Below are positions 10,448 through 63,708 of a DNA stretch of 64,000 nt, in pieces (the stretch's first letter is position 1; every line of letters starts with the position of its first letter). The DNA comes from a virus (Duplodnaviria > Heunggongvirae > Uroviricota > Caudoviricetes): IMG/VR virus record IMGVR_UViG_3300044712_000123, one strand, 5' to 3'. The notes under the pieces are model-generated. The model ran no database searches. It worked only from the letters and a program-made list of their open reading frames with translations, and was not told where the DNA came from. The position numbers and the translations under genes are program-made.

Positions 10448-12019
10448 TTATTTACGTTTGGCTCGAACGCCCGTTTCTTTAGCTTTACGGGTACTGCTTG
10501 GGTTGATGATATCCTTAGCTGCACCAGCTAGACTACGTGTGCCCATACTGTCAGCACCGTCAAGTGCATCCTGAGCTTCACCGTCATCACCATACATGTC
10601 AATATTATCATCATGTTGGGCAGTGTCTGCTAGTTTGAAACTGAAACCACCTTTTGTTGGGTCAGTAGAACCTGACTTAGATTCCAATGTAACCTTACCG
10701 TCCAACTTAGCTGGCCATTGTGTAGTGAACACGATCTTGCCTGCTTTGTATGTTGCATATTGTTGCATGAAGTTCATGTCCAAGATTTCCAACACGCCAC
10801 CTTGATAGTTAGGGATAGCATCACTGTCGTTAACCATATCAACTACAGCCTTCTTGACAAGATACATCAACTTACCACCGTCACTTGATTCACCTTTGAA
10901 TCCCATGTCAGCCCAAAGTGATGCATACTTTCCTGGTAACTTAGATTCTTCTTTGCGGTTAGCTTTGTACATCATTAAACTTTGATCTGCCATCTTCATT
11001 ACTTTATCAGTCCAAGGCAAGAATTGATTGAACTTCTTAGGGATAGCCTTAGGGTTGTATTTGTGAATGATGTTCATACCTCTGAACGGTTGTTCTTTAG
11101 TAGGAGTAGTCTTAGTCATCTCAATAAATTCAACTAAGGCAGCATATTTCTTGTTCTTTCTGATATGATCTGGAATCTTCAAACCAGTCATACTAGGAGG
11201 CGCACCGCCACCTGTTCCCTTACTAGAGATTTTAACAGTGTGTGATGTTGCAGCATTCTTAACTTCGGCGTAGCTATCAGCTAGCTTCTCATTTTGCTTG
11301 CTCGGGAATCGTAGTACTAGATCACCCAATGAACCACCTAGCCATTCTTCGAATTGCTTTCTCTTGGGGAAGCTAGACTGACCATACAACAATGCAAGAA
11401 CACCCAGGTATTCGCCTGCATTATCAACTAGTGCAGTACGCACGGTTTCGTGGCTTTTGTCTCTATAGTCTTCAGGAAGAATAGCACCTTCACCTGCCAT
11501 AATCTGATAAGCAAGTTGAATAGTAACTTTACCATAATCAGTGCTTTCTAGGACTTGGTTGTGTGTAATCATGTCACCGAAGTCTTCTGCATTAATATCT
11601 TGGTCAGTGATCTTAATCTGAGCAGGATTTAATTTGAAAGCAGCTTTACCTTTAGGTTCTTGTTCGCCCTTTTCACTTGGTTCGCCTGTTGCACTACCGG
11701 CAAGTTGTCCACCAAATTCGCTAGTTTTCAACAGACTACCTAACGGGATTACATCACCATCAGTTGTCTTTAACTCGATAGAACCCTTGAACTGAGTGCC
11801 ACCTGGGCTGTTATGTAGTGCTTGAATTCTTTTAGCTTCTCTAGGATCGATGAAGACTTGAACTCCATCCTTGCTTAGAAAAGGCTTGCTTGTAGCAATG
11901 TGTTGGATGAAACTTTCAAAACGACCTGGTCGTTTTAATAGTACACCGGGGCTTAGGGTCTTAGCAGAAGATTCCGAATCTTCGGCAAGAACAGATAATA
12001 GGTCTAATAAATCACGCAT
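10448..12019 (-). CDS. hypothetical 523-aa protein with N-terminal MRDLLDLLSVLAED; candidate propeptide-tagged virion or injected protein
   Basis: No recognisable catalytic motif. Its N-terminus resembles that of the SOD-like gene at 40007 (MRDLIQLLED). Confidence 0.45.
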   Translation of the reverse strand: MRDLLDLLSVLAEDSESSAKTLSPGVLLKRPGRFESFIQHIATSKPFLSKDGVQVFIDPREAKRIQALHNSPGGTQFKGSIELKTTDGDVIPLGSLLKTSEFGGQLAGSATGEPSEKGEQEPKGKAAFKLNPAQIKITDQDINAEDFGDMITHNQVLESTDYGKVTIQLAYQIMAGEGAILPEDYRDKSHETVRTALVDNAGEYLGVLALLYGQSSFPKRKQFEEWLGGSLGDLVLRFPSKQNEKLADSYAEVKNAATSHTVKISSKGTGGGAPPSMTGLKIPDHIRKNKKYAALVEFIEMTKTTPTKEQPFRGMNIIHKYNPKAIPKKFNQFLPWTDKVMKMADQSLMMYKANRKEESKLPGKYASLWADMGFKGESSDGGKLMYLVKKAVVDMVNDSDAIPNYQGGVLEILDMNFMQQYATYKAGKIVFTTQWPAKLDGKVTLESKSGSTDPTKGGFSFKLADTAQHDDNIDMYGDDGEAQDALDGADSMGTRSLAGAAKDIINPSSTRKAKETGVRAKRK

Positions 12020-12038
12020 AGTCTAGTATTTATGCTTT

Positions 12039-12530
12039 TCAGCATTTAAAGATATTTTGATATCTGAGCCAATGCTTTTGTCTATGTGATGTTTTAAGTG
12101 GGATCCCGTATTCTGCTAGTCTATCTCTGAACAAAAAGAAGCTAGGACCATGACTCATTAGTCTATCCTTTCCATCTTGGATTCGTTGTTCACCGATGAT
12201 ATCCCATTGATACTGATGACACATTTCGTGAGCTAATGTAGTGATAAGCCATTGCTTGCAGTACCACTTGTCCATGAGTCGTATTTTACACAGTGACCTA
12301 CGGTAGTGAATCTTTTCGTGCGCACCGTAACAGATTCCCCAGTATTCTCTGCATCTAGGAACTACTTCGAGTATTGGCATAGTCATTACATTGTCAAATA
12401 CATAGTAATTGATTTGTCGATAAAGATTTGAGACCTCATAGTAGTCAGTCCTGTACATCAGTCTTTTTTGATAACTGATGCTAGGCAATGGTGTATCCAT
12501 CATTTCTTCAAGAGAATAGTACTTGGCCAT
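12039..12530 (-). CDS. SprT-like zinc metallopeptidase
   Basis: HEMCH (HExxH) motif in a SprT-like context (TLAHEMCHQYQWD) and several Cys. Confidence 0.5.
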   Translation of the reverse strand: MAKYYSLEEMMDTPLPSISYQKRLMYRTDYYEVSNLYRQINYYVFDNVMTMPILEVVPRCREYWGICYGAHEKIHYRRSLCKIRLMDKWYCKQWLITTLAHEMCHQYQWDIIGEQRIQDGKDRLMSHGPSFFLFRDRLAEYGIPLKTSHRQKHWLRYQNIFKC

Positions 12531-15130: not shown

Positions 15131-15340
15131 CTTCTTAGGAAGACTTTGTTCACGCAAGAATTTCTTCCATCTAGACTTAGCTTTGGATTTCTTTAACTTG
15201 CGTTCAGTGGTAGGCTTAACAAACTGTTGTCTGTCTCTCACTTCTTGGAGAAGATCCATATCGGTTATCTTCTTCTTGAATTTACGTAGGGCTTTCTCTA
15301 CGTTACCATCTGTTACAATTACTCGTCTTCCTTTTTTCAT
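15122..15340 (-). CDS. rpsU: 30S ribosomal protein S21
   Basis: ALRKFKKK...L.EVR.R..F.KPTTERK matches bacterial bS21 (ALRRFKR...LAEVRRREFYEKPTTERK). Its start overlaps the clpX stop as ATGA. Confidence 0.8.
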   Translation of the reverse strand: MKKGRRVIVTDGNVEKALRKFKKKITDMDLLQEVRDRQQFVKPTTERKLKKSKAKSRWKKFLREQSLPKKLF

Positions 15341-19815: not shown

Positions 19816-19853
19816 TAGAATATTTATGTGTTTTTGTTCTCCGTAGAGTAATA

Positions 19854-28668: not shown

Positions 28669-29165
28669 CGACTATTTATCACAGCTTTTGCTTCGGCTTC
28701 AGTTTTAAACGGACCTTGATAGTCATATCGCTGGATAAAGATATATTTAGGACAGAATTCTACGGTCGCCTCAGTTCCTTGGTTCATTACATACCACCCT
28801 GCGGCATAGTAACATTTGCTTTTCAATGTCTTTGTGTACAAGTGAATCTTGCGTTTGATATCCAAGATTGAATTGAAGACTTTACTGGTCGTAGGATACT
28901 CGTTGAACGGTGCTTCGTGCTTTGGTTTCTCTTTGGTAAGTGGTTGAAACTCGATATGAGTTTGCTTTTTGATAGCAGTGGTATTTTTAAAATGAGCAAC
29001 GCCACCGTTGAGCTTCACTTCGAATCCAGACCCATCAGCGATAACGTTACCGACTTTTTCGTTTCCGTCCGTTACTATCCAGAACTGATTCTTTACTACG
29101 GGTTTTGCTATTAGTGTTTTTGTCATTTGTTTCCTCTTCGTCAAAAGATTTGAGTCTTTTAACAT
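28665..29165 (-). CDS. hypothetical protein
   Basis: ORF on the track. Confidence 0.4.
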   Translation of the reverse strand: MLKDSNLLTKRKQMTKTLIAKPVVKNQFWIVTDGNEKVGNVIADGSGFEVKLNGGVAHFKNTTAIKKQTHIEFQPLTKEKPKHEAPFNEYPTTSKVFNSILDIKRKIHLYTKTLKSKCYYAAGWYVMNQGTEATVEFCPKYIFIQRYDYQGPFKTEAEAKAVINSR

Positions 29166-36135: not shown

Positions 36136-36566
36136 CTAATCTCTGTTCTTCCGTCACCCAAATCTTTTGTTCTAACCATACGCATATCTCGATTAGTTGG
36201 ATCAGCTTGTTGTTGTTCATAAACTTCGAGTGCTACATTGCGACAAATTGTTTGGAACCAGCGATCCACAATGACTGAATCAGCTTCGTCATCCTTCATT
36301 TTGTAACCAGCACGAATCAAATTAAGAATGAACTTGTCATTCCAATCTAGTTCGAATGCACCTGAGTTAATATCGTTAGGATCGATATCCATACCCAATA
36401 TATTCACGTAGGGATCTCCTGCGGCAGTTGCTTTCTCTTTAGCAGTTAACTCAGGTGTAACCTTCTTTTCCTTAGGCTTGCGTGGTTTCTTTACCTTAGG
36501 CATTACAGGAGCTGGCGCTGGTTCTGGAGTCTCTTTCTTTCCAAATAGTTTATCAAATAGTCCCAT
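36132..36566 (-). CDS. hypothetical protein with a Pro/Lys-rich N-terminus
   Basis: ORF on the track. Confidence 0.35.
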   Translation of the reverse strand: MGLFDKLFGKKETPEPAPAPVMPKVKKPRKPKEKKVTPELTAKEKATAAGDPYVNILGMDIDPNDINSGAFELDWNDKFILNLIRAGYKMKDDEADSVIVDRWFQTICRNVALEVYEQQQADPTNRDMRMVRTKDLGDGRTEIS

Positions 36567-37585
36567 TATTTTACTTTCTCATATAGTTTAAAGCTGGCCA
36601 AGTTCTTACCTTTAGCCTCGCACATCATATCGAATTTATCATAGAATGACAGTGCCCAATCATTTACTGCATCATTCCAGTAATAGTCTGAGTGTGCGCG
36701 AAGTTTCTGTTTGCTATGACCTGCGGCAATCAACGCACCATGATCGGGTAAGATGTGTCCGGGATGTTGAGTAAGTACATCTTCCCGAGAAACACTGTAA
36801 TGGAGAGTAGGACGAATGCCCCTCCAACTATCAATAACCTTTTTAACAAGATCATCATTGCAGTCAAGATAGGTTCCCTCACGAATCCAATTATGGTGAA
36901 TGTCCAAGACCGTAGGGACGAGGTCAGATAATGATAAGCAGTCAGATAGTCCATGTGTGTATTCCTCATTTTCGAGTGTTAGTGTGTTTCGTGCCTCAGG
37001 TGACAACTTGCCAAAAACATCCCTGATACCCTGAGGGCCTCTGCGACCAGAAATGTGTACGTTGATTTTGATATCTTGAAACTGTTTACCATAGCCCATC
37101 ATACGAGCCATGTCAACGTGATATTCAAATTCTTCGATACTCTTATTTACTACCTCGTCACGGTCGCTTGCAAGAACCACAAACTGATCGGGGTGAAACG
37201 AAAGACGAACGTTGTTTTGTCGTGCAGTCTCACCTAGAGGTGCGAACCAACGAGCAAGTGAATCCTGAGTGTTTTGACTTTGCCAGAAGTCTGTGTAATC
37301 TTCATGCGTATAGAACGACAACATGTCCGATGTGATACGCAACATACGCAGGGGTTCGGGAAGTGTTGCAACTTTCTTAATCAGTGCATGAGTGTTGACA
37401 ATATTGGTCTTAGCAACATCGATGATTTTTTGTTCGACTGCAGGACGATTGTTACGCTTTGCCCAAGCAAGTGTAGTACCACCTGTGTTCAAGCCTTCGA
37501 CACTGGAAATCTCGCCTTTCTTGTTAATTTCAGCGAATTTACAAGCAAAACCGATACGTTTAGTGTTAAGGTCAAAAGAGTGCAT
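36566..37585 (-). CDS. uvdE: UV-damage endonuclease
   Basis: Conserved UvdE blocks RIGFAC, LRITSDMLSF, NVRLSFHPDQFVVL, EEFEYHVDMARMMG, INVHISG, LTLENEEYTH and DIHHNW. Confidence 0.85.
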   Translation of the reverse strand: MHSFDLNTKRIGFACKFAEINKKGEISSVEGLNTGGTTLAWAKRNNRPAVEQKIIDVAKTNIVNTHALIKKVATLPEPLRMLRITSDMLSFYTHEDYTDFWQSQNTQDSLARWFAPLGETARQNNVRLSFHPDQFVVLASDRDEVVNKSIEEFEYHVDMARMMGYGKQFQDIKINVHISGRRGPQGIRDVFGKLSPEARNTLTLENEEYTHGLSDCLSLSDLVPTVLDIHHNWIREGTYLDCNDDLVKKVIDSWRGIRPTLHYSVSREDVLTQHPGHILPDHGALIAAGHSKQKLRAHSDYYWNDAVNDWALSFYDKFDMMCEAKGKNLASFKLYEKVK

Positions 37586-37597: not shown

Positions 37598-37606
37598 TGA
37601 TAAATA
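37598..37606 (+). promoter_or_regulatory. TGATAAATA motif, candidate promoter element for the + strand island
   Basis: Exact 9-mer, 54 nt upstream of ATG 37661. Confidence 0.3.
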
Positions 37607-37660
37607 ATATAATACTATAACACATCTGTGTTTTTATGTCAACTATTTACGGATACAACT

Positions 37661-38227
37661 ATGAGAATCAATGAATTTATCAATGAGGGCAAAAAACCCG
37701 GTTTATGGGCAAACATTCACGCTAAACAAAACCGCATTAAAAACGGTTCCGGTGAGAAGATGCGTAAGCCAGGAAGTAAGGGCGCGCCTTCTGCACAAGA
37801 TTTCAAAGATGCAGCAAATGAAGCAGCCAATCCAGCACAACAAGCTGCCATTGCTATTAGCAAAAAAGAGCAAGATGTCTCAGAAGACTGGCAAAAGGTC
37901 AACAAAAAGGACAAAACTGACGGTATGAGCAAGAAGGCTGTCAAAGCCTATCGCCGTGAGAATCCAGGTTCTAAACTAAAGACCGCTGTCACAACTAAGC
38001 CTTCAAAATTAAAGAAGGGCTCTAAGAGTGCAAAACGCCGTAAGAGTTTCTGCGCACGTATGAGTGGAATGAAAAAGGCTCATGCAAGTGCTAAGACTAA
38101 ACGAGATCCGGATAGCCCAATCAACAAAGCATTGCGCCGTTGGAACTGCGAATCAGTAGAACAACTACAAGAATTGGTAATGATCGCCGAACAATATATA
38201 GCAACAAAAAAGAAAGAATTGAAATGA
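37661..38227 (+). CDS. basic Lys-rich protein with N-terminal MRINEFINE; candidate propeptide-tagged virion protein
   Basis: Start reassigned to the internal ATG 37661. The MRxNEF(I/L)xE N-terminus is shared with 40557, 41414 and 62914. Confidence 0.45.
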   Translation: MRINEFINEGKKPGLWANIHAKQNRIKNGSGEKMRKPGSKGAPSAQDFKDAANEAANPAQQAAIAISKKEQDVSEDWQKVNKKDKTDGMSKKAVKAYRRENPGSKLKTAVTTKPSKLKKGSKSAKRRKSFCARMSGMKKAHASAKTKRDPDSPINKALRRWNCESVEQLQELVMIAEQYIATKKKELK

Positions 38228-40005
38228 ACTTCAAAGAACTATACGAAGGCGCAACGCCAAAACTACCCGGAGCGTTTAATGGCGTTCAAGTAATGACACC
38301 TCAGCAATTTGTTGCTAAAGCAGGTGATATGGCAGGTGAAGAAGTTGATGAAGGGTATCCCAAACATCAAGACTTGAGTGGTGTCAGTACTGACAAACTC
38401 AAAGCATATCTTGCTAAACAAAGTCAGCAATCAGTGCCGGGTGAAGGTAGTCAGGTCAAGCGTGTACAAGCTGAATTACAGCGTAGAAGTCAAGGTGTGG
38501 AGGAAGGCATCGGCGATACTATTAAGCGCGGAGTCAAGAGCGTCAAGCGTGGTATGCAGGGTTGGGGGCAGTTAAATGATGTGCCGGACGATGACCCAAG
38601 ATTGTTACCTGGGGCTAAAGATACACCAAGACAATTAGTGGCACGTAACAAAGGCTATGATGACAAAACTGTAAAGCAATTAGCTCGTCCTGTTAAATCA
38701 AGTTTCCCGTTCGGTGGTGATGATACTACAAGTCCGCATAGCCCAAGAGGATTGCAAAAGCGTGTATTAGATCGTGAAATGAAAAAACGCGGACTGGATG
38801 AGCAAGGTGTATCTGAAGGTGAAGAACACCTAGCAAGAATTCGTAAACTATCTGGCTTAGAAGAAGCAACTAAACTGCCAGCACAAAGTCGTGACTTAGG
38901 TGGCCAAGAGTTTCAAGACTACATGAAACGTATTCAAGGTACTCCTGACGTAGACAAAGCTGGTAACGTTAAAGTAGACAAGAAGGGCAACGAGAAGTAT
39001 GTCACTGGTAAAACAAAGACAGACAAGTACAAGATGCCCTATATCCATCGTTCAAGTGTTATCACATACTTGAGTCCTGATGGCAAGACTTACAGTGAAG
39101 ATGCTATTAAAAAGACGCTAGCAATTCGTCCTAAAGCATTGTTAAAGCAGAACGAAAAGATGAAGCATTCTAACGGAGAGTTTGAACAATTCTTCAACGT
39201 TGGTTTCGCAGCATTGACGGGAATTGCATTAGACGAACAAACTAACAACCTAATCATTGTAAACACATGCCCAGGCGCTGGTTCATGTAAAGTTGATTGC
39301 TTCGCTATGAAGGGCGGTAAGGTTCAGTTTAAGAATGCTTGGCAAAGTGATGGCCGTATCTTAACATATCTATTGAATGATCCAGATGGCTTCTTCAATC
39401 AACTAAGTGCAGAGATTACAAAAGAATCTGAAGCAGGTAAAAAGGGTGATAAGAAGTTCCCTGGTGGTTGGAATGTAACAGTTCGCTGGCATGATGCTGG
39501 TGATTTCTTTAGTCCAGAATATCTAGACTTAGCATTGAAGATGGCTGCAAAGCATCCTGATGTTAAGTTCTATGCTTACACAAAGATGGCTGGTGCTGCA
39601 TTAGCTAAGAAGCCAGACAACTTTATCATCAACTGGTCAGAAGGCGCAAGCTCAAGTCAAGAGAAACAAGTTAAAGCACAAGATCCTAACTTAGAACAAA
39701 CTAAGAATAGTCGTATCGTTCCTGAGAAGTTATTCTATGACTTGTTAGCTAAAGACGAGAAGGGTAACTTAGCTAAAGGACCTGCTGGTCAATGGCAACC
39801 TGCTAGCCCAGAAGCATTGAAGCAAATGAAACAGCGTATTGCACAAGCATACAACATCAGCCCATCAAGTATCTTGTCATATGACGAATATACAAGCAAG
39901 CCTAAAGTCGCTGGTATGAAGTACAACGTTATTGTAGCTCCAGGTGAAGGTGATATCAGTGCTAACGATCCTAACGTACTAAGCACATTGTTGTTGAGAC
40001 ACTAA
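38224..40005 (+). CDS. hypothetical 594-aa protein with N-terminal MNFKELYEG
   Basis: ATG overlaps the upstream stop as ATGA. No catalytic motif recognised beyond a CPGAGSCKVDC Cys cluster. Confidence 0.45.
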   Translation: MNFKELYEGATPKLPGAFNGVQVMTPQQFVAKAGDMAGEEVDEGYPKHQDLSGVSTDKLKAYLAKQSQQSVPGEGSQVKRVQAELQRRSQGVEEGIGDTIKRGVKSVKRGMQGWGQLNDVPDDDPRLLPGAKDTPRQLVARNKGYDDKTVKQLARPVKSSFPFGGDDTTSPHSPRGLQKRVLDREMKKRGLDEQGVSEGEEHLARIRKLSGLEEATKLPAQSRDLGGQEFQDYMKRIQGTPDVDKAGNVKVDKKGNEKYVTGKTKTDKYKMPYIHRSSVITYLSPDGKTYSEDAIKKTLAIRPKALLKQNEKMKHSNGEFEQFFNVGFAALTGIALDEQTNNLIIVNTCPGAGSCKVDCFAMKGGKVQFKNAWQSDGRILTYLLNDPDGFFNQLSAEITKESEAGKKGDKKFPGGWNVTVRWHDAGDFFSPEYLDLALKMAAKHPDVKFYAYTKMAGAALAKKPDNFIINWSEGASSSQEKQVKAQDPNLEQTKNSRIVPEKLFYDLLAKDEKGNLAKGPAGQWQPASPEALKQMKQRIAQAYNISPSSILSYDEYTSKPKVAGMKYNVIVAPGEGDISANDPNVLSTLLLRH

Positions 40006-40006
40006 G

Positions 40007-40570
40007 ATGCGTGATCTGATTCAGCTACTTGAGGATAAGTCAAAGCCTCAAGATATAGAAATCATCGCTCTTAACTTTGAGCCAAAAGATGTAAGTCCTG
40101 TGTTGTCGAAAGACACACTAGACTTGCACTATGGCAAGTTAGCGCATGGCTATGCTGAACGATACAACAAGAAAGAGGGCGATAGAGAGTTTAACTACGC
40201 AGGCGCGTTCTTACACAATCTATTGTTTACTCAGTTTCGTGAAGTCAGAAACAATAACAAACCAAATGGTCCCGTTGAAAAACTAATCAACTCTCGTTAC
40301 AAATCATGGGACAACTTCAAAGACAAGTTTCTAGAAGAAGCAATGAAGATTGAAGGCAGTGGCTGGGTATACTTAGCTACTGATGGTAGCATCAAGACTA
40401 TCAAGAACCACGATGTTCGTGATGACATTCTATTGTTAGTAGACTGGTGGGAACATGCATGGTTGCTTGACTACGAATCGAACAAAACTAAATACTTAAA
40501 AGAGCAGTGGAAGATCATCAATTGGAATGTAATCAACACTCGCTGGGGCAAGAATTATGAGAGCAAATGA
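40007..40570 (+). CDS. Fe/Mn superoxide dismutase-like protein
   Basis: C-terminal VDWWEHAWLLDY...WKIINWNVINTRW matches the SOD DVWEHAYYLDY..W..VNW..V signature. GSGWVYL and the N-terminal His ligands (LHYGKLAH) are present, although the HH pair reads HY. N-terminus MRDLIQLLED. Confidence 0.65.
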   Translation: MRDLIQLLEDKSKPQDIEIIALNFEPKDVSPVLSKDTLDLHYGKLAHGYAERYNKKEGDREFNYAGAFLHNLLFTQFREVRNNNKPNGPVEKLINSRYKSWDNFKDKFLEEAMKIEGSGWVYLATDGSIKTIKNHDVRDDILLLVDWWEHAWLLDYESNKTKYLKEQWKIINWNVINTRWGKNYESK

Positions 40571-41414
40571 ATTTCTAAATGAGACACAAGAACTAGACGA
40601 AATCGAAAGATTACGTCCAAATGACTATGCAGGCGGCAAAGAAAGTCTATACGATAAGCAAGTTGGCAAGCAGGTAAAGAAACTACCAGGTGGTAGTGGA
40701 TTTCTTTATTCTACTAGTGAGGGTCGTTGGGGTGGTACTGATATCAAACTTTGGGATCCAAACGGTAAAGATTTTATTGCTCAAAAAGAAAGAGGTGTTC
40801 AACCTAAACCAGTGCGTGGCCAAAGAGAGTCGAGCTTCAGTTACGACCGTAGACTTTGGGATTGGCAAAGAGCACAACGTGATTTGAATACACCAGGTCA
40901 ATTGATCGGCAAGTTGTCAGTTAGCAATGCTAATGATTTCCCATTAAAAGGTGCAGTACAAGTTGACACTATCACTGTAGATGAAGATTACCGTGGTGTA
41001 GGTCTTGCTAAAGCATTGTATGGTATCGTGTTAACTATCATGAAGCGTCCATTAGTCGCAGGATCAAGTCAAACGCCCGGTGGTCGTAGAAACTGGGTCA
41101 GTCTTGCTGGCATCCCCGGAGTAGAAATGAAGGGTTATATCAAGTTCGAAGAAGACGAGTTAGATGCTGATCCAAGAATAAATGATATGAGGTCCACTAA
41201 ACAAGCGAACCAAATAATCGATACTGTCATGGGTCAATTAGGTGGACAATATATTGGTCGTGGAAAATATGATGAAGAATTCTTTGCGTTTGACGTTAAG
41301 CCAAATACAACAGGTACAGAATTAGAAGCATACGTTAAAACCAAATTGAATCCTGTATACGGTAACTTCAACTCATCTACTGGCTTATACGCTATCTGGA
41401 CTGGACCAGCATAA
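40557..41414 (+). CDS. protein with N-terminal MRANEFLNE and a GNAT-like motif A (YRGVGLAKALY)
   Basis: Overlaps the SOD-like stop. Confidence 0.45.
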   Translation: MRANEFLNETQELDEIERLRPNDYAGGKESLYDKQVGKQVKKLPGGSGFLYSTSEGRWGGTDIKLWDPNGKDFIAQKERGVQPKPVRGQRESSFSYDRRLWDWQRAQRDLNTPGQLIGKLSVSNANDFPLKGAVQVDTITVDEDYRGVGLAKALYGIVLTIMKRPLVAGSSQTPGGRRNWVSLAGIPGVEMKGYIKFEEDELDADPRINDMRSTKQANQIIDTVMGQLGGQYIGRGKYDEEFFAFDVKPNTTGTELEAYVKTKLNPVYGNFNSSTGLYAIWTGPA

Positions 41415-42991
41415 TGAGAGCTACTGAATTCATCACCGAAGAAGCTAAAAACGCTAAGTACAATGGATTGACGTTGAAGTACGCATTCAATGACCGTGCA
41501 TTGATTATGAAGGCGTTCGAGCCTATTACTAAAAATCCACTAGCTTATGTTAAGTTCGTAAAAGAAAACGAAGAACTATATCCACAGGATCTTTGGGTCA
41601 ACGATGAATATCGCAACAAGGGCATTGCCAAGTCGATGTATGACTATCTAAAAAGTGAAGGCTATGTCATCAATAGAAGTCACGACCAGACTAAAGCCGG
41701 AGCCGGCTTCTGGGATAAGCATCGTGGTGAGGATGCATACGTTTGGGAAGACGAAAAGTTAGACGAACTATTTCAACCCGGTAAAAACTGGGAATGGACG
41801 TTTCGAGGTAGCGAAGAAGCTGTTGCCGTCTTTGACATTGGAGATGTTGAATATGTGTTTCATGCATATGGACCAGATCCGATATGGGAAGTTGGATTTA
41901 GACAACGTGAACAAGCAGAATGGGACAAAGCATTTGGACTAACTGGCACTGGTAATTCAGCAGAAGTCATGAGTACTGTAGTTGATATCATGCGATCATT
42001 TTTAGCCCAGTACAAAGACAAAATAGGAACATTGGTATTCAGTGCAAAGGAAGATTCGCGCCAAGGGTTATATGCTAGAATGGTTAAACGACTACTACCC
42101 GACTGGACTATGAAACAAGAAGGTCAAAGTTTTATACTCACCGCTCCTAAACAAGTAGATGAAGAAATTACAGATGAAATGGCTCTTAAACAGTTTACCC
42201 CAATAGGTGACTTTGAGAAGCCAGGACCATTTAAAGCAGTTGATAAGCGTCTAGTTCAACACCAGACTAATCAATTAAAGGCTGAAAAATTCTTTGAACA
42301 AACGCCATATGATTTCAGATTGTTTTTCAGCAACATTCCAGGTACTGGCAAATATGCTGAAACTGGTCCAGTCAATGCGCAACAATTACAACAAATGTTT
42401 GGCCCTGAATATGCCAAGCAAATTCTAGCTGACAGTGAAGATGCTATTACCGTTGTATTCGTAGGTAACAGTGGTGCAGACAAAGTAATGATTACTCCAT
42501 GGATCATGGCACATAGATTTGGTCATGCGATTCAAGCAGGTGCAAGGCGTAACCAAGGATGGAGTACATGGAAAGAAGCTGAAAAGCATTTCTTTACCAC
42601 AGTCAATACTTTGTTGGCAGACTACTATCGCAAACAGTCACGCTCTAGTGGTAGACAGCATGACATGCAAGGTGATCTAACACAAGAATACAACGCACTA
42701 TTCAACGCACTTGGTACCCAACGTAGCAGTCGCACCGGACAGATCAAACGTCCGTACGAATTCTTGTATGAGATATTTGCACAATATCTAAAGACTGGTG
42801 AAGTTACCTTTAACCCATTACCGCAGCGTATAGATTATGGTAGAAAAGCATGGGGTACTAGCACCAAGGGTATGTCTGCACAACCAGGAGCAGAAGACTT
42901 ACGAGACATGGCAGAAATTCTTGCAAGAGATATGCAATACATGTTTGATGATGTATTGTCTAGCTCAGTAGGTCAAGTCTTTGTAATGTAA
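41414..42991 (+). CDS. 525-aa protein with N-terminal MRATEFITEE and a GNAT-like motif A (YRNKGIAKSMY)
   Basis: ATG overlaps the upstream stop as ATGA; last gene of the + strand island. Confidence 0.45.
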   Translation: MRATEFITEEAKNAKYNGLTLKYAFNDRALIMKAFEPITKNPLAYVKFVKENEELYPQDLWVNDEYRNKGIAKSMYDYLKSEGYVINRSHDQTKAGAGFWDKHRGEDAYVWEDEKLDELFQPGKNWEWTFRGSEEAVAVFDIGDVEYVFHAYGPDPIWEVGFRQREQAEWDKAFGLTGTGNSAEVMSTVVDIMRSFLAQYKDKIGTLVFSAKEDSRQGLYARMVKRLLPDWTMKQEGQSFILTAPKQVDEEITDEMALKQFTPIGDFEKPGPFKAVDKRLVQHQTNQLKAEKFFEQTPYDFRLFFSNIPGTGKYAETGPVNAQQLQQMFGPEYAKQILADSEDAITVVFVGNSGADKVMITPWIMAHRFGHAIQAGARRNQGWSTWKEAEKHFFTTVNTLLADYYRKQSRSSGRQHDMQGDLTQEYNALFNALGTQRSSRTGQIKRPYEFLYEIFAQYLKTGEVTFNPLPQRIDYGRKAWGTSTKGMSAQPGAEDLRDMAEILARDMQYMFDDVLSSSVGQVFVM

Positions 42992-45344: not shown

Positions 45345-45550
45345 TCTTCAACTCCGAAATGTTCTTTAATTCTTCTACTGACAAATGCATTAGGGTCATT
45401 AAACCCTGCAACATCAGCGCATTCTTTTACGATCAACTCAGCAAACTTTTCTAAGCTGAATACATGGGTATGTAATCCAGTTTGTCCCGGCATATGAACC
45501 ATCGACTGTTCTGCGATGTTTTCAAATACTTCACGCATCATGTTCCCCAT
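45341..45550 (-). CDS. EHFGVEE-family small protein (copy 3)
   Basis: LEKFAELIVKECADVA...IKEHFGVEE. Confidence 0.5.
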   Translation of the reverse strand: MGNMMREVFENIAEQSMVHMPGQTGLHTHVFSLEKFAELIVKECADVAGFNDPNAFVSRRIKEHFGVEE

Positions 45551-46380
45551 TCGTTTTTGAACAAAGGCACTTGCAATCTATCTGAATATCGCCAGCCACG
45601 TTTACATGCTTCGTCTGCTACTCTACGTGCGTTCATAGTGTAGATTGATTCAACACCACCGCAAGGCATCAAGTAAACAGGACCTCTGAATCCATGCGCT
45701 CTGTATGCCGCTACTGCTTTGTCTGCTTCTAATGCATCTTCTTCTGTGGCAACAACAAACTTCAAGTAAACAAAGCCCACTTCTTGATATTGATTGATTA
45801 CTGGTGGACAGATTGCTTCTTCCCACTTCTCACCACTGATTGACAACTTAGGACTAACTGAGAACGTGATTGCATTCTTCTCACGATTCATCTTCCACTG
45901 ATGCAAATATGTCTTTAGATCAATAGACAACATCTGTGTACCATTAGTTTCGAACGTCAACTCCTTCAGTTGTTTCATTCTTTCGTGCGAAAGTAAGTCA
46001 GGATACGCTCTTTGCCATCCGAGCAACGGTTCACCGCCCGTGATAACCAAGTGCTCATCCATCCAACGCTTGTGAGGAAGTAAATCACACATACTGTCAG
46101 CAAGAGAATCGGTACTGAGCACAGGACTAAGATGTTTGAAACGAGGGTCCCAAGATGCATAACTATCACAGCCCGTGCTGACAAGCGGTAAGGATTTATA
46201 CTCTGTAAAACTCTCTGCATCAATTTTGTCTCTCTCAACACTCAATTCTCCCTTAGGCATACCGAAGCCGCCGCATGTAAAGTTGCACCCATATGTTCTG
46301 AGAAAGATACTAGGGACTCCCATGTATCTACCCTCACCTTGAATGCTATAAAATAACTCTGAAATTTTTAGTTGACTCAT
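45538..46380 (-). CDS. queE: 7-carboxy-7-deazaguanine synthase (radical SAM)
   Basis: LFYSIQGEGRYMGVPSIFLRTYGCNFTCGG matches the QueE N-terminus; VITGGEP and ETNGT are present. Confidence 0.8.
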   Translation of the reverse strand: MSQLKISELFYSIQGEGRYMGVPSIFLRTYGCNFTCGGFGMPKGELSVERDKIDAESFTEYKSLPLVSTGCDSYASWDPRFKHLSPVLSTDSLADSMCDLLPHKRWMDEHLVITGGEPLLGWQRAYPDLLSHERMKQLKELTFETNGTQMLSIDLKTYLHQWKMNREKNAITFSVSPKLSISGEKWEEAICPPVINQYQEVGFVYLKFVVATEEDALEADKAVAAYRAHGFRGPVYLMPCGGVESIYTMNARRVADEACKRGWRYSDRLQVPLFKNEWGT

Positions 46381-47555
46381 ATTAAATCTGCTACCGTTTT
46401 AGAAGTGAATGGACTCAATGTCCAGCCAAGATGTCCGTGTCCTGTATTATAGTATACTTTAGGATTCTTGTCACTCTGTTTGGTAATAGGCATCATGTCA
46501 GGTGTCATTGGACGCAAACATGCCCATTGTGAGTAGTCGCTTGTATTGATATTGGGAAAGTTTGTATGTACCCATTTTAGTAGAGGTTCAATTCTGTCTC
46601 TAGTGATATCATAGTTCTCACCTGTCAACTCAGCAGTACCGGCAACACGGAATCTATTACCCAATGAACTAGTAACTATCTTAGCCTGATCGTCAAGCAA
46701 ACTGACCTTAGGCAAGTACTTAGGATCAACGTTGTTGATAGTGATTGAATATCCTTTGACTGGATATACATCAATAGTGTCACCAACTTGCTTTGCTAGT
46801 TCTGCGCTACCAACTCCAGCAGCAACTACAACTGCATCAAACAGTTCAGTCAATGCGTTCATGCCATACTTTTCAGTGACAGTTGACTCGTACTTGAACT
46901 CTACATTATACTTATTAGCCAATACTAATGATAGTTGCTGGCAGAATTTGTGAATGTCACCGGTGCTATCACTTGGGGTGAATGTTCCACCGATCACTCC
47001 ATTGATATCTTGCAATGCAGGATCTAGAAATTTAACTTGCATTGGTGTCAACAAGTCCCACTCACACCCGTTTTCGTTGTAAATCTCTTTGACTTGTTTA
47101 GCATTATCCCAATACTGTTCATCTTTGTAAAAGTGAACAATGCCTGCCTTCAAGTGGTCGTAGCAAATGCCTTCTTCTTCGACAAGTTGGTCATACAACT
47201 TACGTGCTTCAACTCCTGCACGAATTGTCCATGCTGTATTTCGCTTATATGCACCTGTCGCAGTGTGATACAAGAACTTTAGAATCCACTTCCACTGTTT
47301 GTAATCTAACCTGGGACGAATGAGTAGTGGCGCGTCTTTAGTAAAAAGCCACTTAGTAGCTTTCTTGACGTTACTCCATGTAGTCCATACTTCGCTGTTG
47401 CTTACTGATACTTGTCCGCCATTAGCAAAGCTAGTCTTCATTGCTGAGTAGCGTTCTTGTTCGTAGACAACTACTTTATAACCTTTTTTTGCGAGGTAGT
47501 ATGCAGTTGTTAGTCCTGCGATACCTGCCCCGATTACTGCTACTGTTTTTGACAT
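46377..47555 (-). CDS. FAD-dependent amine oxidase/dehydrogenase (DadA/DAO family)
   Basis: Dinucleotide fold VAVIGAGIAGLTTAYYL; ETSFANGGQV, LRPMTPD and NTGHGHLGWT match DadA. Confidence 0.75.
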   Translation of the reverse strand: MSKTVAVIGAGIAGLTTAYYLAKKGYKVVVYEQERYSAMKTSFANGGQVSVSNSEVWTTWSNVKKATKWLFTKDAPLLIRPRLDYKQWKWILKFLYHTATGAYKRNTAWTIRAGVEARKLYDQLVEEEGICYDHLKAGIVHFYKDEQYWDNAKQVKEIYNENGCEWDLLTPMQVKFLDPALQDINGVIGGTFTPSDSTGDIHKFCQQLSLVLANKYNVEFKYESTVTEKYGMNALTELFDAVVVAAGVGSAELAKQVGDTIDVYPVKGYSITINNVDPKYLPKVSLLDDQAKIVTSSLGNRFRVAGTAELTGENYDITRDRIEPLLKWVHTNFPNINTSDYSQWACLRPMTPDMMPITKQSDKNPKVYYNTGHGHLGWTLSPFTSKTVADLI

Positions 47556-47770
47556 TAATATCCTAATCGTTCTTTTCTTTGTTCTTCTGTTTCGTCACGT
47601 TGTAAGTGAATGAAGATGCATCCTTCCACACCGCAACCGCAAACAATGTGATATTCTCTAACGATACGCTCTGCGGCTTTAACTTCGCCGCGCTTGAGCA
47701 AACTGTTGACAATCTCACGTTCATGCTTGGCAGCACTTAGGTCTTTAGGTGAAAGGAAGCGACCGCTCAT
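47555..47770 (-). CDS. hypothetical small Cys-rich protein
   Basis: ORF with a CGCGVEGC cluster. Confidence 0.3.
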   Translation of the reverse strand: MSGRFLSPKDLSAAKHEREIVNSLLKRGEVKAAERIVREYHIVCGCGVEGCIFIHLQRDETEEQRKERLGY

Positions 47771-48270
47771 GCAAGTAAATCCTCATTCCATTCACGATGA
47801 CCTTCACGGAAAGCCATGTTGCTCTGTGTCTCACGTACTTCAACACGATAGCACCACAATCTTTTTGCTTCACCTTCGCCCCACATGTCAGGGATGTAAA
47901 CACCATTAACATATTTGTAAAGCATATCTGCAAGACTTTCACACCCTAAGCGTGGAAGAATTGTTAGTTTAGCCATCTTCTTTTCTTGCAATAATTTGAA
48001 TGTTTCAAGTTCAGGGTCATCTTCTGCGACTAACAATGTGTGGTCGAATTGATCTTCAAGAATCTTCTTCAATTCTTTTAAGCCACCGTAGTCTGCTGCC
48101 CAATTGCGAACATCTAAGTCATCAGTACCAAAATAGAACTTCATACTGAAACTATATCCGTGAATTGTATTGCAGTGACTATCCGCGCGCCATTGACGAT
48201 AAGCGCAAGGGAATGAATCGTGGTACTCTTTAGTACTTGTGTATTTGTAACTTACTAGTTGATTTGCCAT
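47767..48270 (-). CDS. queD: 6-carboxytetrahydropterin synthase-like protein (QueD/PTPS family, variant zinc motif)
   Basis: CNTIHGYSF aligns to the QueD CxxxHGH motif with the last His replaced by Tyr; T-fold length. Confidence 0.55.
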   Translation of the reverse strand: MANQLVSYKYTSTKEYHDSFPCAYRQWRADSHCNTIHGYSFSMKFYFGTDDLDVRNWAADYGGLKELKKILEDQFDHTLLVAEDDPELETFKLLQEKKMAKLTILPRLGCESLADMLYKYVNGVYIPDMWGEGEAKRLWCYRVEVRETQSNMAFREGHREWNEDLLA

Positions 48271-48346
48271 TGTTTTCTCCTATGTTAATTATAGCATAGG
48301 CAGCAGAGTTTGTATAGCGGGATGACGCCGAGACCGCTATCTTTAT

Positions 48347-48553
48347 TTACCTTTTTATACCCCATGCAATTTTATTCCAAATTCGCTCATGAATAAAATA
48401 TAGAATGGTGTTAAAAGTTAACTGAATTAGTGCGATTGTTCCGGAAACAGACACATTTCCTAATATCATATATGATATCAAGAACGTAGCAAGACTGCCA
48501 GTTATTCTCCAACTGACAGTCTTTACTAAGCTACGCTTAGTTGTTTCACTCAA
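48347..48553 (-). CDS. small membrane protein
   Basis: Two hydrophobic helices. Confidence 0.3.
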   Translation of the reverse strand: MSETTKRSLVKTVSWRITGSLATFLISYMILGNVSVSGTIALIQLTFNTILYFIHERIWNKIAWGIKR

Positions 48554-49337
48554 GCCCTAACCCTCTTCGGATTTTTGTAGCACTGATACTATGGGTAGCA
48601 TCATCAAATGTTTCTTGTTCGATTTTGTATCCTACATCACGTCCATATGTAATGTTCACGATGTTTGGTACAATCTGAATCTCGTATTGACCTTGATAAA
48701 GCATATCCAAATCACGCTTGATAAAGTTCTTTACTTGTTCAATGGCAAATGGATTTGAACCATTCCAGCCCTGACAGTCACGAATCTGGATAACAACTTG
48801 ACCAGTCTTAGCAACTGCACGTTCAAACAATTTACGATGACCTTCATGCCAAGGTTGCCAACGACCTAACATTTGTACTGTTTCTTTTTTCCAATCGAAT
48901 TCTGGGCGTCTGCGATCATCCAAGATATGTGCAGCAATAAACTCTCCCCATTTTTCACCATGTTGCTCAGTGATTCTAAAATCATAAACATCAGGTGCGA
49001 TGAATGCTTTGTTGGTATCTTCGTATCGACCCTTGTCAATAGTATCAACCCAAACAGTCCAATCTGCTTTAAAGTTGTTACGCATTTCTACTAGAGGTGC
49101 AACAAAGTCACAGATAACATAGTCCATGCCTGTCATACTATCTGCTAGTTCACGCATACGCAAACTTTGACGGATACGGCCTTCTTTACTGAAATCCCAA
49201 TCGTTATATTTCTTACGCACATCATCAGCGTTAAGCCAACCAACTTTCTTCTTTTCAGCTTGCAAGTGACCGAGTATATGTTGTGCTAGATATGTTTTGC
49301 CTGAGCCCGGAAGACCCATAATTAAAATTCGTTTCAT
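48546..49337 (-). CDS. bifunctional APS-kinase-like P-loop kinase / HxGH nucleotidyltransferase
   Basis: N-terminal GLPGSGKT plus LNADDVRKK...GRIRQSLRMRELA (APS-kinase-like); C-terminal WHEGH and ISATKIR (nucleotidyltransferase HxGH / ISSTxIR motifs). Confidence 0.55.
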   Translation of the reverse strand: MKRILIMGLPGSGKTYLAQHILGHLQAEKKKVGWLNADDVRKKYNDWDFSKEGRIRQSLRMRELADSMTGMDYVICDFVAPLVEMRNNFKADWTVWVDTIDKGRYEDTNKAFIAPDVYDFRITEQHGEKWGEFIAAHILDDRRRPEFDWKKETVQMLGRWQPWHEGHRKLFERAVAKTGQVVIQIRDCQGWNGSNPFAIEQVKNFIKRDLDMLYQGQYEIQIVPNIVNITYGRDVGYKIEQETFDDATHSISATKIRRGLGLE

Positions 49338-49639
49338 TTGTATAACTCCAATAACATTTTGTATTTACTATATGCTTCTGCAACTGCCGGGTGTGTTCTA
49401 CGTAGATATGCCTCTTCGCGCTGGTCTTGCCATTCCTTTTCACTTGCGTTGTCCATCTTGACCAAATCTTCAAACCCACTACGTGTGAGTTCCATTTCAA
49501 TTAATTCTTCGCGGTCAGCGTAATAACTAGCAGTTTGGTTATAACTACCGTAGTTGATAGTTGCATAATTTCGATCACGACTTACTTGTACATGTTTGAC
49601 ACGGTATTTACTAATGAATGAATCGTAAAAATTACTCAT
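49334..49639 (-). CDS. hypothetical protein
   Basis: ORF on the track. Confidence 0.35.
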   Translation of the reverse strand: MSNFYDSFISKYRVKHVQVSRDRNYATINYGSYNQTASYYADREELIEMELTRSGFEDLVKMDNASEKEWQDQREEAYLRRTHPAVAEAYSKYKMLLELYK

Positions 49640-50109
49640 TGTTGTCCCCTTTTGTTGGACTCACTATCATAGACACGTTTACGTAGGCTACTGGAGCTAA
49701 AGGAGTGATCTCTACCGTTAAAGACAATTGCGATGGATCGGAGCTCGCATTCACTTTTACCCGTGAACTCTTTATCTGCGTATTCGATGCCAAGAATTCT
49801 GACATCCACTGGGAGTATGAGTAAGAGGTCAACGAGGTCTTGTTCTGTGCTGTACACAACCACTTCGTCAACGTAACGGCACGCCGCCAATTGGATTTGA
49901 CGTTCCACGATGCTTTGAACAGGCTTGTTCTTAGTGTCAGGACGATCAATTGTAGGATCACTTTGAAGACCGCAGATAAGGTAGTCGCAATGGTTTCTTG
50001 CTTCACTGAGCATTGCGATGTGTCCTGCATGGAGCATGTCGAAGGTTGAGAACGTGATTCCAATTCGTTTGCCTTCTTGTTTAAGTTTTTTAACATGATT
50101 AAAGATCAT
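49636..50109 (-). CDS. cytidylyltransferase of the TagD / HldE-domain-II family
   Basis: FSTFDMLHAGHIAML (HxGH) and RYVDEV match glycerol-3-phosphate cytidylyltransferase-type enzymes. Confidence 0.65.
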   Translation of the reverse strand: MIFNHVKKLKQEGKRIGITFSTFDMLHAGHIAMLSEARNHCDYLICGLQSDPTIDRPDTKNKPVQSIVERQIQLAACRYVDEVVVYSTEQDLVDLLLILPVDVRILGIEYADKEFTGKSECELRSIAIVFNGRDHSFSSSSLRKRVYDSESNKRGQQ

Positions 50110-51709: not shown

Positions 51710-51718
51710 TATTTATCA
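51710..51718 (-). promoter_or_regulatory. TGATAAATA motif, candidate promoter element for folE
   Basis: Exact 9-mer, 59 nt upstream of the folE ATG; it overlaps the groES stop. Confidence 0.3.
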
Positions 51719-52009
51719 TTCTTCGTCAACGATACAAAGAATATCTTCTTCTTTCATCACGATGAAATCTTGATTACCTACGGTAATCTTCTGAGGACCT
51801 GATTGAGTGTAGATAACTACATCACCCTCTTTTACTTCAGGTGTAGCGAAAGTACCATCGTCTAATCTGCGACCTTTGCCTACCTTGAATACTGTACCAC
51901 GTGGCAATTTCTCTTGAGCCGAATCAGGGATGTAAAACCCTGATTCTGTTCTAGTCTTTGCTTCCTGCGGTTTGACCAAGATGCGGTCATTTGCTGGAGT
52001 CAATGCCAT
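51716..52009 (-). CDS. groES: co-chaperonin GroES
   Basis: 97 aa; L.P..DR.LVK......T.SG.......Q.K...G.V..VG.G........P.VK.GD.V......G...I.......V..E.DIL.IV matches GroES throughout. Confidence 0.85.
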   Translation of the reverse strand: MALTPANDRILVKPQEAKTRTESGFYIPDSAQEKLPRGTVFKVGKGRRLDDGTFATPEVKEGDVVIYTQSGPQKITVGNQDFIVMKEEDILCIVDEE

Positions 52010-62913: not shown

Positions 62914-63594
62914 TTATTGGAAGATTTGAGGATGAGCTTTACCGAATATTTTGATGTACTTACCTGCCATCATATCGGCTTCTGCTTCGATTGGGCTACC
63001 TGGGTAGCTGTCGCCGGGTTGAATCATATTAAGTTCGCTTTGGCGACAGTGAACTAATTCGTGAAATACGGTGCGCATGATATCAACCATATTGCGATTC
63101 TTTGCGTATACCCAAACTTCATTTGAGCCTTCAACGTGACGACCAGTATGATGACCTTCTTGAGCTTCTTCTGTGTCGTAACTGAATTCTACTTTTGGAG
63201 TTGTTTGTAGATTTAGTTTCTTAGTTGTCCATGCAATGAACTTACGCATGGTAGGGTCGTTGTTTAGATCAGGTTCGCTATCTTCTGATAACTCATCTTG
63301 ATTGGGAACATGTCTTGGAGTTAGCTTACGTAGGCCAGATACTTCACCTCGACCAACACCAACATTTTCTTCGTTAGTAGTGAGTTCGTCTAGTTTACCC
63401 TTAATCCAGTTGTCAGGAGTTCTACCAAACTTCTTAACAAATAAGTCATGTAATGCTTTACCATTGATGCCATTCTTCTTTGCGACATTTTGCATCAATT
63501 TGTCGATGGTATTATAGTCGTGCTTGGCTAGACTAGGAAGTCTTTTGGCTAATTCAGTAGCAGGGGATTCGGATATAAACTCTTTGTAACGCAT
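62914..63594 (-). CDS. HExxH zinc-metallopeptidase-like protein with N-terminal MRYKEFISE
   Basis: FHELVHCRQ (HExxH) near the C-terminus; the N-terminus matches the MRxxEF(I/L)xE family. Confidence 0.5.
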   Translation of the reverse strand: MRYKEFISESPATELAKRLPSLAKHDYNTIDKLMQNVAKKNGINGKALHDLFVKKFGRTPDNWIKGKLDELTTNEENVGVGRGEVSGLRKLTPRHVPNQDELSEDSEPDLNNDPTMRKFIAWTTKKLNLQTTPKVEFSYDTEEAQEGHHTGRHVEGSNEVWVYAKNRNMVDIMRTVFHELVHCRQSELNMIQPGDSYPGSPIEAEADMMAGKYIKIFGKAHPQIFQ

Positions 63595-63708
63595 ATAGTA
63601 TTTATCTCCCGGTTACTTTATCCGGGGCACACTACGCGGTGCAGTTCAATTGCGCGGACGCCTGAGCTTACGCTCTACCGTTACATCAACGGGCCCTAAG
63701 GTGGGTTC

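Follow-up and report, generated by a model that had tools for sequence, protein, structure and literature searches.

The DNA analysed here, called the window throughout, is a stretch of 64,000 nucleotides from a virus of the Caudoviricetes (IMG/VR record IMGVR_UViG_3300044712_000123), in which we studied seven genes whose products begin with a short N-terminal leader, M-R-x-x-E-F-(I/L)-x-E or a variant of it. Five of these genes form a co-oriented block (the cassette) at 37661-42991 on the plus strand, in a region that is otherwise on the minus strand, and two are solitary minus-strand genes beginning with MRYKEFISE (ATG at 63594) and MRDLLDLLSVLAE (ATG at 12019) (Table 1). The same start codons were used in independent gene calls on public contigs.

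Table 1. Leader genes of the window with their promoter-like boxes and predicted cleavage junctions
Feature	Position	Strand	Remarks
GATAAATA box, T4-type late-promoter-like	37600..37607	+	54 nt upstream of the first cassette gene
188-aa basic protein, pI 10.2	37661..38227	+	Leader MRINEFINE (37661-37687), then three small modules: GKKPGLWANIHAK..., AANPAQQAAIAI... and DWQKVNKK... (DUF6321; Pfam E = 7e-12)
Predicted internal cut site QDVSE of the 188-aa protein	37871-37885	+	
593-aa protein	38224..40005	+	Variant leader MNFKELYE (38224-38247); C-terminal GP88 domain (PF17338)
Two QGV.E linkers of the 593-aa protein	38491-38505, 38803-38817	+	
187-aa Fe/Mn superoxide dismutase (SOD)-like protein	40007..40570	+	Leader MRDLIQLLE (40007-40033), opening a ~16-residue N-terminal extension
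285-aa protein	40557..41414	+	Leader MRANEFLNE (40557-40583); weak GNAT-like motif
525-aa three-module protein	41414..42991	+	Leader MRATEFITE (41414-41440); GNAT and DUF6934 weak
Predicted junctions of the 525-aa protein	L-D-E 41759-41767; V-D-E 42155-42163	+	
226-aa protein	62914..63594	-	Leader MRYKEFISE (63568-63594); N-terminal module ends in L-D-E (63385-63393); C-terminal region with HELVH motif at residue 178
ATAAATA late-promoter-like box	63599..63605	-	Spacing of 4 nt to the ATG of the 226-aa gene
523-aa protein	10448..12019	-	Variant 13-residue leader MRDLLDLLSVLAE (11981-12019)
ATAAATA late-promoter-like box	12027..12033	-	Spacing of 7 nt to the ATG of the 523-aa gene

Among the 106 open reading frame (ORF) N-termini of the window, the strict motif M[RK]xxEF[IL]xE was seen four times where 0.00036 occurrences were expected (Poisson P < 1e-15), and away from an N-terminus it was found only once within the window ORFs. 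The four unrelated proteins starting with MRINEFINE, MRANEFLNE, MRATEFITE and MRYKEFISE that had been singled out in the original prediction, a note made from the DNA letters, are all present, and their motif is far beyond chance. Three further proteins carry variant leaders that end in hydrophobic-x-Glu (MRDLIQLLE, MRDLLDLLSVLAE and MNFKELYE); residues 7-9 are I/L-x-E in all four strict leaders, and the variants end in L-L-E, L-A-E and L-Y-E. With the leader removed, the seven proteins had no significant mutual similarity (best E = 0.14). All seven N-terminal sequences listed in the prediction were recovered as written, but two of its coordinates, 62914 and 10448, proved to be ORF ends, the starts being at 63594 and 12019. 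The (L/I/F)-x-E ending that it gave as common to all seven is indeed present in each, but as a detector this rule is too permissive; a loose (L/I/V/M/F)-x-E ending at residues 8-13 was only weakly enriched in the window (21 seen versus 11.5 expected) and also picks false positives, for example MSLVPIVIE, which is the conserved N-terminus of ClpP.

The breadth of the leader was examined by scanning IMG/VR viral contigs with a degenerate DNA pattern for M-R-x-T-E-F-I-T-E. The pattern matched at least 120 stretches, where by our own estimate few chance matches were expected, and the listed loci contained 203 ORFs with the leader at their true N-termini. Among the matches listed, de-duplication left 161 unique leader proteins in 38 unlinked groups, the largest of which comprised 95 proteins joined via shared modules, and at least two leader genes were found in 48 of 117 loci, with six in a row at one locus.

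The leader is a separate peptide module that is conserved as amino acids rather than as DNA. The 60 nt upstream of the seven window genes are unrelated and the leaders differ in their synonymous codons. In 164 non-identical leader genes of the viral contigs, synonymous usage at codons 3-9 was close to that in the gene bodies (for example, GAA 80-89% versus 78% and TTT 59% versus 65%, with the three Ile codons roughly equal), which indicates that the constraint acts on the amino acids. The only skewed leader codon was the Arg codon at position 2, with AGA at 82% versus 38% in the gene bodies. The leader is also borne by the genes starting at 40557 and 41414, although each of these lacks a separate promoter and begins within the last stretch of the gene before it. 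Nearly all of the best 120 homologues of the 188-aa protein begin with M[RK]x[TNDE][ED][FIV][ILM]xE, and among them at least six different modules are fused directly after Glu9, including GKKGLWANIHAK..., AANPAQQAAIAI..., SSKICPQCGMRGC..., DWQKVNKKDK... (DUF6321), SLGTRLKDIAK... and SVAGPKNCWPG...; across metagenomes, the modules attached right behind Glu9 number in the dozens.

On the viral contigs, GATAAATA was found in the 80 nt upstream of 30 of 152 leader genes against 0.75 expected, an enrichment of ~40-fold, and for 21 of 39 cases (L011-L117) the ATAAATA core ended precisely 5 nt ahead of the ATG. In the window, boxes precede the cassette and both solitary leader genes (Table 1), as well as several non-leader genes. 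The textbook T4 late promoter is TATAAATA, and cyanophage late promoters follow NATAAATA; on these grounds the leader genes can be read as putative late genes that are co-expressed with the head proteins. A further GATAAATA box (51710-51716) overlaps the stop codon of a 97-aa ORF (51716-52009, minus strand, starting with MALTPANDRILVKPQE), which by eye has the look of a GroES/Hsp10-type co-chaperonin, and lies ~59 nt upstream of the next gene (ATG at 51650).

Boxes of the form (G)ATAAATA stand 4-7 nt before an ATG at window positions 3704-3710, 12027-12033, 19821-19827, 28673-28679 and 63599-63605, with no evident Shine-Dalgarno sequence, and on account of this spacing the late mRNAs of the clade may be leaderless or nearly so. 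The shared N-terminus might then be a requirement of translation initiation, such as a 5' coding element of nearly leaderless late mRNAs, an alternative that had already been raised in the form of a shared initiation context. The close spacing at 12019 and 63594 and in the 21 contig cases, the lack of an obvious Shine-Dalgarno sequence, and the AGA bias, which points to some nucleotide-level initiation effect at codon 2, are in line with it. We nevertheless consider this explanation highly improbable, as codons 3-9 follow the usage of the gene bodies, the upstream sequences are unrelated, the within-operon genes at 40557 and 41414 also bear the leader, and hydrophobic-x-E recurs at internal junctions far from any start codon. 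Moreover, the late genes at 3715, 19815 and 28668 have a box-ATG spacing of 4-5 nt and no leader, which indicates that the leader is not required by nearly leaderless mRNAs.

The view of the leader as a peptide module ending at Glu9 extends to the interior of the longer proteins. In longer homologues of the 188-aa protein, the same modules occur in varying order with linkers between them, for example EQGVAE·G, QDVSE·D, QGIDE·D and GLNE·F (the dot marks the end of a linker or leader), and in all 98 occurrences of the DUF6321 module [LIVMF]xE stood before it. The 525-aa protein has three modules, all of which were found elsewhere directly behind a leader, and its junctions read K-L-D-E·LFQPG and Q-V-D-E·E. 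In the 593-aa protein, the variant leader MNFKEL(Y/F)E is common to the window and its two syntenic relatives, loci L005 and L008, both of which also retain QGVAE-type linkers; QG[VILM]xE linkers number only three window-wide, which is not significant there, and they are convincing only across homologues. At the level of sequence, every module junction conforms to the cleavage consensus of T4 gp21. Because the module boundaries follow (L/I/V/M)-x-E, this suggests that the junctions are processing sites and that the longer proteins are protease-cut polyproteins.

The variant leaders were examined through homologues. The SOD-like protein matched Sod_Fe_C with 82 bits against a cutoff of 20.9 (E = 3e-23) and Sod_Fe_N with 23.2 bits against a cutoff of 27, and by eye it has His and Asp in the usual motifs LHYGK, FLHN and DWWEHA. 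Among its relatives (38-63% identity), an N-terminal extension ending in hydrophobic-x-hydrophobic-hydrophobic-E is very common (for example, MDDIRGIITLLE, MNTFKNILKLLE, MREHINLIE and MQDIKQWIQLFE) and is followed by a short linker and then the SOD fold; other members of the family begin right at the fold and have C-terminal extensions instead. These extensions support MRDLIQLLE as a second leader type, which also resembles the N-termini of T4 gp24 (MAKINELLRE) and gp21 (MNEPQLLIE). The 523-aa protein matched, over its residues 18-103, residues 8-90 of a 445-aa protein of L008 that begins with MRYSEFISE (48% identity, E = 6e-17), and this homology ties the variant leader MRDLLDLLSVLAE to a canonical one. 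Genes for ClpP (Pfam E = 3.5e-81), for a ClpX-like ATPase with a zinc-finger-like CSFCGN motif at its N-terminal end and for an SprT-like peptidase of the HExxH type surround the 523-aa MRDLLDLL gene on the minus strand (9788-12530 and 15337-16542).

With regard to the remaining cargo, a homologue of the 285-aa protein (L099:12001) starts with MRANEFLTE, and leader-bearing homologues of the 226-aa protein were found in L026, L027, L082 and P0004. Solved structures gave no significant match for the 593-, 523- or 525-aa protein. Of the cargo named in the original prediction, the SOD-like enzyme has its C-terminal domain above the Pfam threshold. The GNAT label is weak, the GNAT matches of the window proteins being below the Pfam thresholds, and the DUF6934 match is weak as well. 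The label of an HExxH peptidase is also weak: the HELVH motif sits in the 226-aa protein, in which Pfam recognised no peptidase, and the 525-aa protein has only HRFGH. An eighth leader gene was found ~4.7-5.7 kb past the right end of the window (L212:409-1500), encoding a 363-aa protein that starts MRANEFITE·LFSPKGG... and contains a GH19 chitinase/lysozyme-type domain above the Pfam threshold.

In the leader loci of the viral contigs, the cargo domains included GH19, GNAT and ParB_N, with weak matches for DUF6934 and Kinase-PolyVal; one polypeptide (L052) combined GNAT above threshold with ParB_N just below threshold, and the cargo ranged up to 846 aa. A family of ~125-aa proteins beginning with MRAREFI(T/A)E and sharing ...YR(F/A)(G/S)xA(M/I)A... 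motifs was present in one to four tandem copies 1-5 kb upstream of a gp17-like terminase gene (L132-L211) and was conserved on contigs of up to 342 kb; these proteins may be core internal head proteins.

The cassette lies at a variable locus whose cargo genes are exchanged between relatives. A frame of UvdE, DUF6321 protein, GP88 protein and, further on, an epimerase is common to the window, L005 and L008, whereas the other leader-tagged genes differ among them. After the GP88 gene, the window encodes the SOD-like, 285-aa and 525-aa proteins, L005 encodes a SOD-like protein followed by MRATEFITE·GLSHPVIVVDVQPEY... (224 aa) and MRATEFITE·GKLSVDVPNEEW... (157 aa), and L008, a 345-kb contig, has no SOD and encodes MRYSEFISE·GSLSAPELNK... 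(445 aa). The ip proteins of T-even phages likewise share only their N-terminal leader and lie in a genomic hotspot (PMC12373910). The UvdE (UV-damage endonuclease) gene that adjoins the cassette lies at 36566-37585 on the minus strand, and T4 ipII and ipIII adjoin denV, encoding the UV repair endonuclease V (NC_000866, 64939-66415); this parallel may be a coincidence.

We compared the leaders with those of the T4 internal proteins (IPs). In the T4 record, ipII and ipIII start with MKTYQEFIAE·A and ipI with MKTFKEFTSTTTPVSTITE·A. The first ten residues of IPIII are enough for incorporation into the head, with residues 4 (Tyr) and 7 (Phe) mattering for targeting and residues 8 (Ile) and 10 (Glu) for processing according to mutagenesis (a review of Black's work, PMC9026906). 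For a change to Asp10 in T4, packaging in spite of blocked cleavage is reported. When aligned at the final Glu, the strict window leaders keep the E-F-(I/L)-x-E core, including the equivalents of T4 Phe7, Ile8 and Glu10. The idea of the original prediction, a capsid-targeting leader like that of the T4 IPs with a gp21-type (L/I)-x-E end, was supported by every comparative test that we ran.

A leader of this kind could also be a removable pro-sequence that keeps the protein inactive or marks it for processing, packaging being brought about by other determinants. Strict invariance is confined to the cleavage-type residues (hydrophobic-x-Glu), the position of Tyr4 is not conserved, and the internal junctions have the cut motif without the rest of the leader, all of which would be expected of such a pro-sequence. 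Conservation, however, covers the entire block of nine residues, Met-Arg/Lys and Glu5-Phe6 among them; it is improbable that so short a peptide would inhibit unrelated folds by the dozen, and the prohead protease acts inside the prohead, so its substrate must already be there. We therefore regard a pro-sequence that plays no part in head targeting as unlikely.

Capsid targeting by the leader was further examined through the phages in which the module of the first cassette gene occurs. In the T4-like cyanomyovirus P-SSM7, the orthologue of the 188-aa protein (PSSM7_194) begins with MKTYSQFIEE·GKKKGLWDNIHAKRKR, the leader directly preceding the same GKKKGLW.NIHAK module as in the 188-aa protein, and the orthologues of the T4-like cyanomyoviruses Sf-CH1b and ACG-2014i begin with MRD(Y/F)(K/R)EFKELCE·AKRGLYANIHAK; the leaders of these T4-like cyanophage orthologues are thus MKTYSQFIEE and MRDYKEFKELCE. 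The orthologues in two T7-like podoviruses, P-SCSP1d (M..AKKKGLYANIHAK) and Eistla (gp44, MAKKGLYANIHAK), have no leader. The same module is therefore leader-bearing in the T4-type myoviruses examined and leaderless in the two podoviruses examined. T7-like phages (Autographiviridae) are not known to have a prohead protease. PSSM7_194 is annotated as T4-GC 119 with a length of 519 nt, and the P-SSM7 entry in Suppl. Table 8 of PMC3037559 is also 519 nt long. T4-GC 119 was identified as a structural protein in purified S-SM1 virions by mass spectrometry with 13 peptide counts (Sullivan et al. 2010, PMC3037559, Suppl. Table 8), which makes the family of the first cassette gene a virion protein in a T4-like phage.

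The DNA polymerase of the window is T4-like, with best matches in the jumbo phages Phosso, Atu_ph07, XaC1 and RaK2/K64-1 (43-49% identity), identical proteins are present on metagenomic contigs, and syntenic relatives lie on contigs of 99 to ~358 kb. The 188-aa protein has its homologues overwhelmingly in marine cyanophages and pelagiphages. Because of the polymerase matches, the large syntenic contigs and the marine homologues, the window is, judged by its sequence relationships, part of the genome of an aquatic, uncultured jumbo phage that belongs to the T4 superfamily. No near relative was found in the isolate-phage collection by megablast of the cassette or tblastn of the 525-aa protein, and the 226-aa protein matched only internal modules of cyanophage proteins there; no tRNAs were found in the window. 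The jumbo-phage groups that include Atu_ph07 and the gammaproteobacterial giants all have a gp21-type S77 peptidase and a gp23-type capsid protein (Iyer et al., PMC7824862), and by its polymerase the phage falls among the jumbo phages of group 2.2, for which S77 is reported.

A canonical leader gene was found in one block with head genes on a related contig. L276 (IMGVR_UViG_3300021963_005763) encodes a 282-aa protein starting MRINEIITE·EQLDE·... in a co-oriented block with genes matching the T4 gp20 portal (E = 2e-38), the S77 protease (E = 7e-21) and gp23 (E = 1e-42). In K64-1, an unannotated gp21 homologue adjoins the portal gene, ~7 kb from the polymerase gene. S77 homologues are abundant in environmental contigs, in blocks with the order portal, small proteins, S77, scaffold and gp23, and in these blocks the N-terminal region of the capsid proteins holds several hydrophobic-x-E motifs and ends just before a conserved AGAT segment, a boundary resembling that of the T4 gp23 propeptide. 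A T4 gp17-like terminase is encoded in eleven leader loci, the contigs being up to 342 kb long; gp18 was found nearby, the genes are not arranged in the T4 order, and none of gp20-gp23 was found within 10 kb of the terminase. We also considered as a member of the leader family a conserved ~75-80-aa protein encoded between portal and S77 (L215-L298), and rejected it because it matches only sometimes and usually lacks the terminal Glu. This protein starts with MxLxE[LMF][FY] (MKLFEMFD, MILRELFY and sometimes MRSDEFLKE) and has a TRKT(K/R)LTL motif.

The leader might instead address its bearers to another machine, whether as an N-terminal degron or adaptor signal for the ClpXP of the phage, as a chaperone tag or as a portion of an export signal. 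Beside one leader gene lie genes for ClpP, for a ClpX-like ATPase and for an SprT-like peptidase, and some leader proteins have signals of the twin-arginine (Tat) type directly after the leader. The leader probably fits published ClpX N-terminal recognition motifs poorly, however, and leader-type N-termini are found on the orthologues of three T4-like cyanophages and on the T4 internal proteins, in which they are known to target the capsid. The orthologous family is a virion protein, the leader is absent from the T7-like podovirus orthologues examined, and a canonical leader gene lies within a head-morphogenesis block. Such a tag for another machine thus seems quite unlikely to us.

We consider it likely that the leader is a T4-type capsid-targeting propeptide which an S77 prohead protease removes, cutting the module junctions as well. 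The tagged proteins would be made late in infection from the GATAAATA promoters, and the leader would dock them on the scaffolding core of the assembling prohead. An S77 gp21-like prohead protease would then cut after the Glu of hydrophobic-x-Glu and free the mature protein inside the head, and the same protease would probably cut the (L/I/V/M)-x-E junctions, so that multi-module precursors would be polyproteins. The products would include small basic DUF6321-type proteins, SOD-like, GNAT-like and HExxH proteins and a GH19 hydrolase, which would then be able to exit with the DNA at the next infection. Core binding, cleavage, packaging in the lineage of the window and injection are steps that we infer from sequence.

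Several observations weigh against this reading. The equivalent of T4 Tyr4 is present only in MRYKEFISE, the window leader has nine residues where that of T4 has ten, and the AGA bias at codon 2 points to an effect at the nucleotide level. The virion detection concerns a cyanophage orthologue and not the phage of the window, and it does not tell the place of the protein within the virion. Four unique IMG/VR leader proteins have a twin-arginine signal right after Glu9, and a few others have hydrophobic segments there, which is unexpected for head-internal cargo. The original prediction had proposed to locate the prohead protease gene elsewhere in the genome; neither an S77 protease nor scaffold or capsid genes were found in the window or ~6 kb past its end, this 6-kb extension holding a further leader gene and no protease, and two protein searches with the K64-1 and L276 proteases placed none on the 345-359-kb contigs of the window's relatives. 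Queries with T4 and K64-1 gp21 likewise gave no match in the window or in the fetched loci around leader and terminase genes, and among the matches listed the S77 loci from IMG/VR share no contig with leader or terminase loci. The Tat-signal cases are L057:1394, L099:11327 and L014:6890 (identical in L034 and L058), as in MRAIEFINE·DMSRRGFLGALGAGAMAAGGVQA, where a cut at Glu9 would bare the Tat signal at the new N-terminus.

A bolder extension of the targeting propeptide would be combinatorial delivery by the leader together with the (L/I/V/M)-x-E junctions, in which a head-protease site beside each module would let modules be freely shuffled between precursors, and the head protease would turn the precursors into customised injected effectors, some of which, with a twin-arginine signal as their new N-terminus, would be re-exported through Tat to the periplasm of the new host, so that two compartments would be reached. 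We regard this extension as rather unlikely.

The proposed targeting system resembles the IPs of the T-even phages, namely IPI, IPII and IPIII and those of the polymorphic ip loci, whose leader is cut by the gp21 prohead protease, in that a short N-terminal leader is the sole common part of unrelated proteins, with an E-F-I-x-E core ending in (L/I)-x-E, a location in a variable hotspot, some small basic products, late-promoter boxes and membership of the T4 superfamily. It differs in the leader itself (MKTYQEFIAE in T4 versus the nine-residue M-R-x-x-E-F-I-x-E) and in its cargo, which has no sequence homology to T4 IP cargo and is not restricted to proteins of 8-20 kDa but includes large enzyme-like and multi-module ones (SOD-like, GNAT, ParB_N, GH19 and HExxH). 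Further (L/I/V/M)-x-E linkers between modules, such as QGVAE, and ~125-aa tandem paralogues upstream of the terminase are additional differences. The polyvalent proteins (Iyer et al. 2017, PMC5512222) are alike in uniting unrelated effector-type domains in one polypeptide encoded among late or structural genes, in the GNAT, ParB-like, zincin-like HExxH, lysozyme-type hydrolase and weak Kinase-PolyVal domains, and in a predicted delivery with the DNA. In contrast to them, no MuF anchor and no autoproteolytic MPTase logic was seen in the window, most Pfam matches of the window proteins are below threshold, and targeting here would be by a T4-type leader with processing by the head protease at defined junctions.

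Among phiKZ-like phages, the proteases are reported to cut at (S/A/G)-x-E and the propeptides are long, with no shared short leader. The small P3 residue of the phiKZ type was not found here, since the leader end and all 98 DUF6321 junctions have I, L, V or M as P3, which is aliphatic as in T4, and the phage of the window is not phiKZ-like (group 1). The propeptide-bearing ejection proteins of phiKZ-like giant phages such as SPN3US, which are cut by gp175/gp245, are similar in that many head-internal proteins of a jumbo phage are cut after Glu by an S77-family protease (PMC5694885, PMC7411985, PMC10052503). In the literature searched, no paper with these leader strings or with DUF6321 was found, and the capsid-targeting literature found outside T4 concerned phiKZ-like phages and P1. 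The mechanism proposed is that of T4; what is new lies in the consensus and the scale, in a cargo of enzymes and putative polyproteins and in the ecological breadth.

Two other gene groups of the window were observed. At 45538-50109 on the minus strand, PTPS/QueD-like, APS kinase, cytidylyltransferase-like and FAD-dependent oxidoreductase genes are followed by a glycosyltransferase-sized ORF and an epimerase gene; the counterparts in L005 and L008 add GTP cyclohydrolase I, and the cluster may be a nucleotide, DNA or sugar modification pathway. Three tandem paralogues that match DUF6473 weakly come after a rubrerythrin-like gene at 850-3715 on the plus strand.

All three T4 internal proteins inhibit type IV restriction enzymes (PMC12373910), which makes the tagged proteins, including the enzymes, prime candidates for anti-defence or host-takeover effectors. 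Modules bounded by cleavage sites would explain how this arsenal is reshuffled, and the leader suggests itself as a portable tag for loading foreign proteins into the capsids of non-model phages. If the leader works as in T4, the nine-residue string would be a sequence-only marker of the packaged, and probably injected, proteome, and it would serve for the very abundant uncultured aquatic phages of the T4 superfamily and for jumbo phages.

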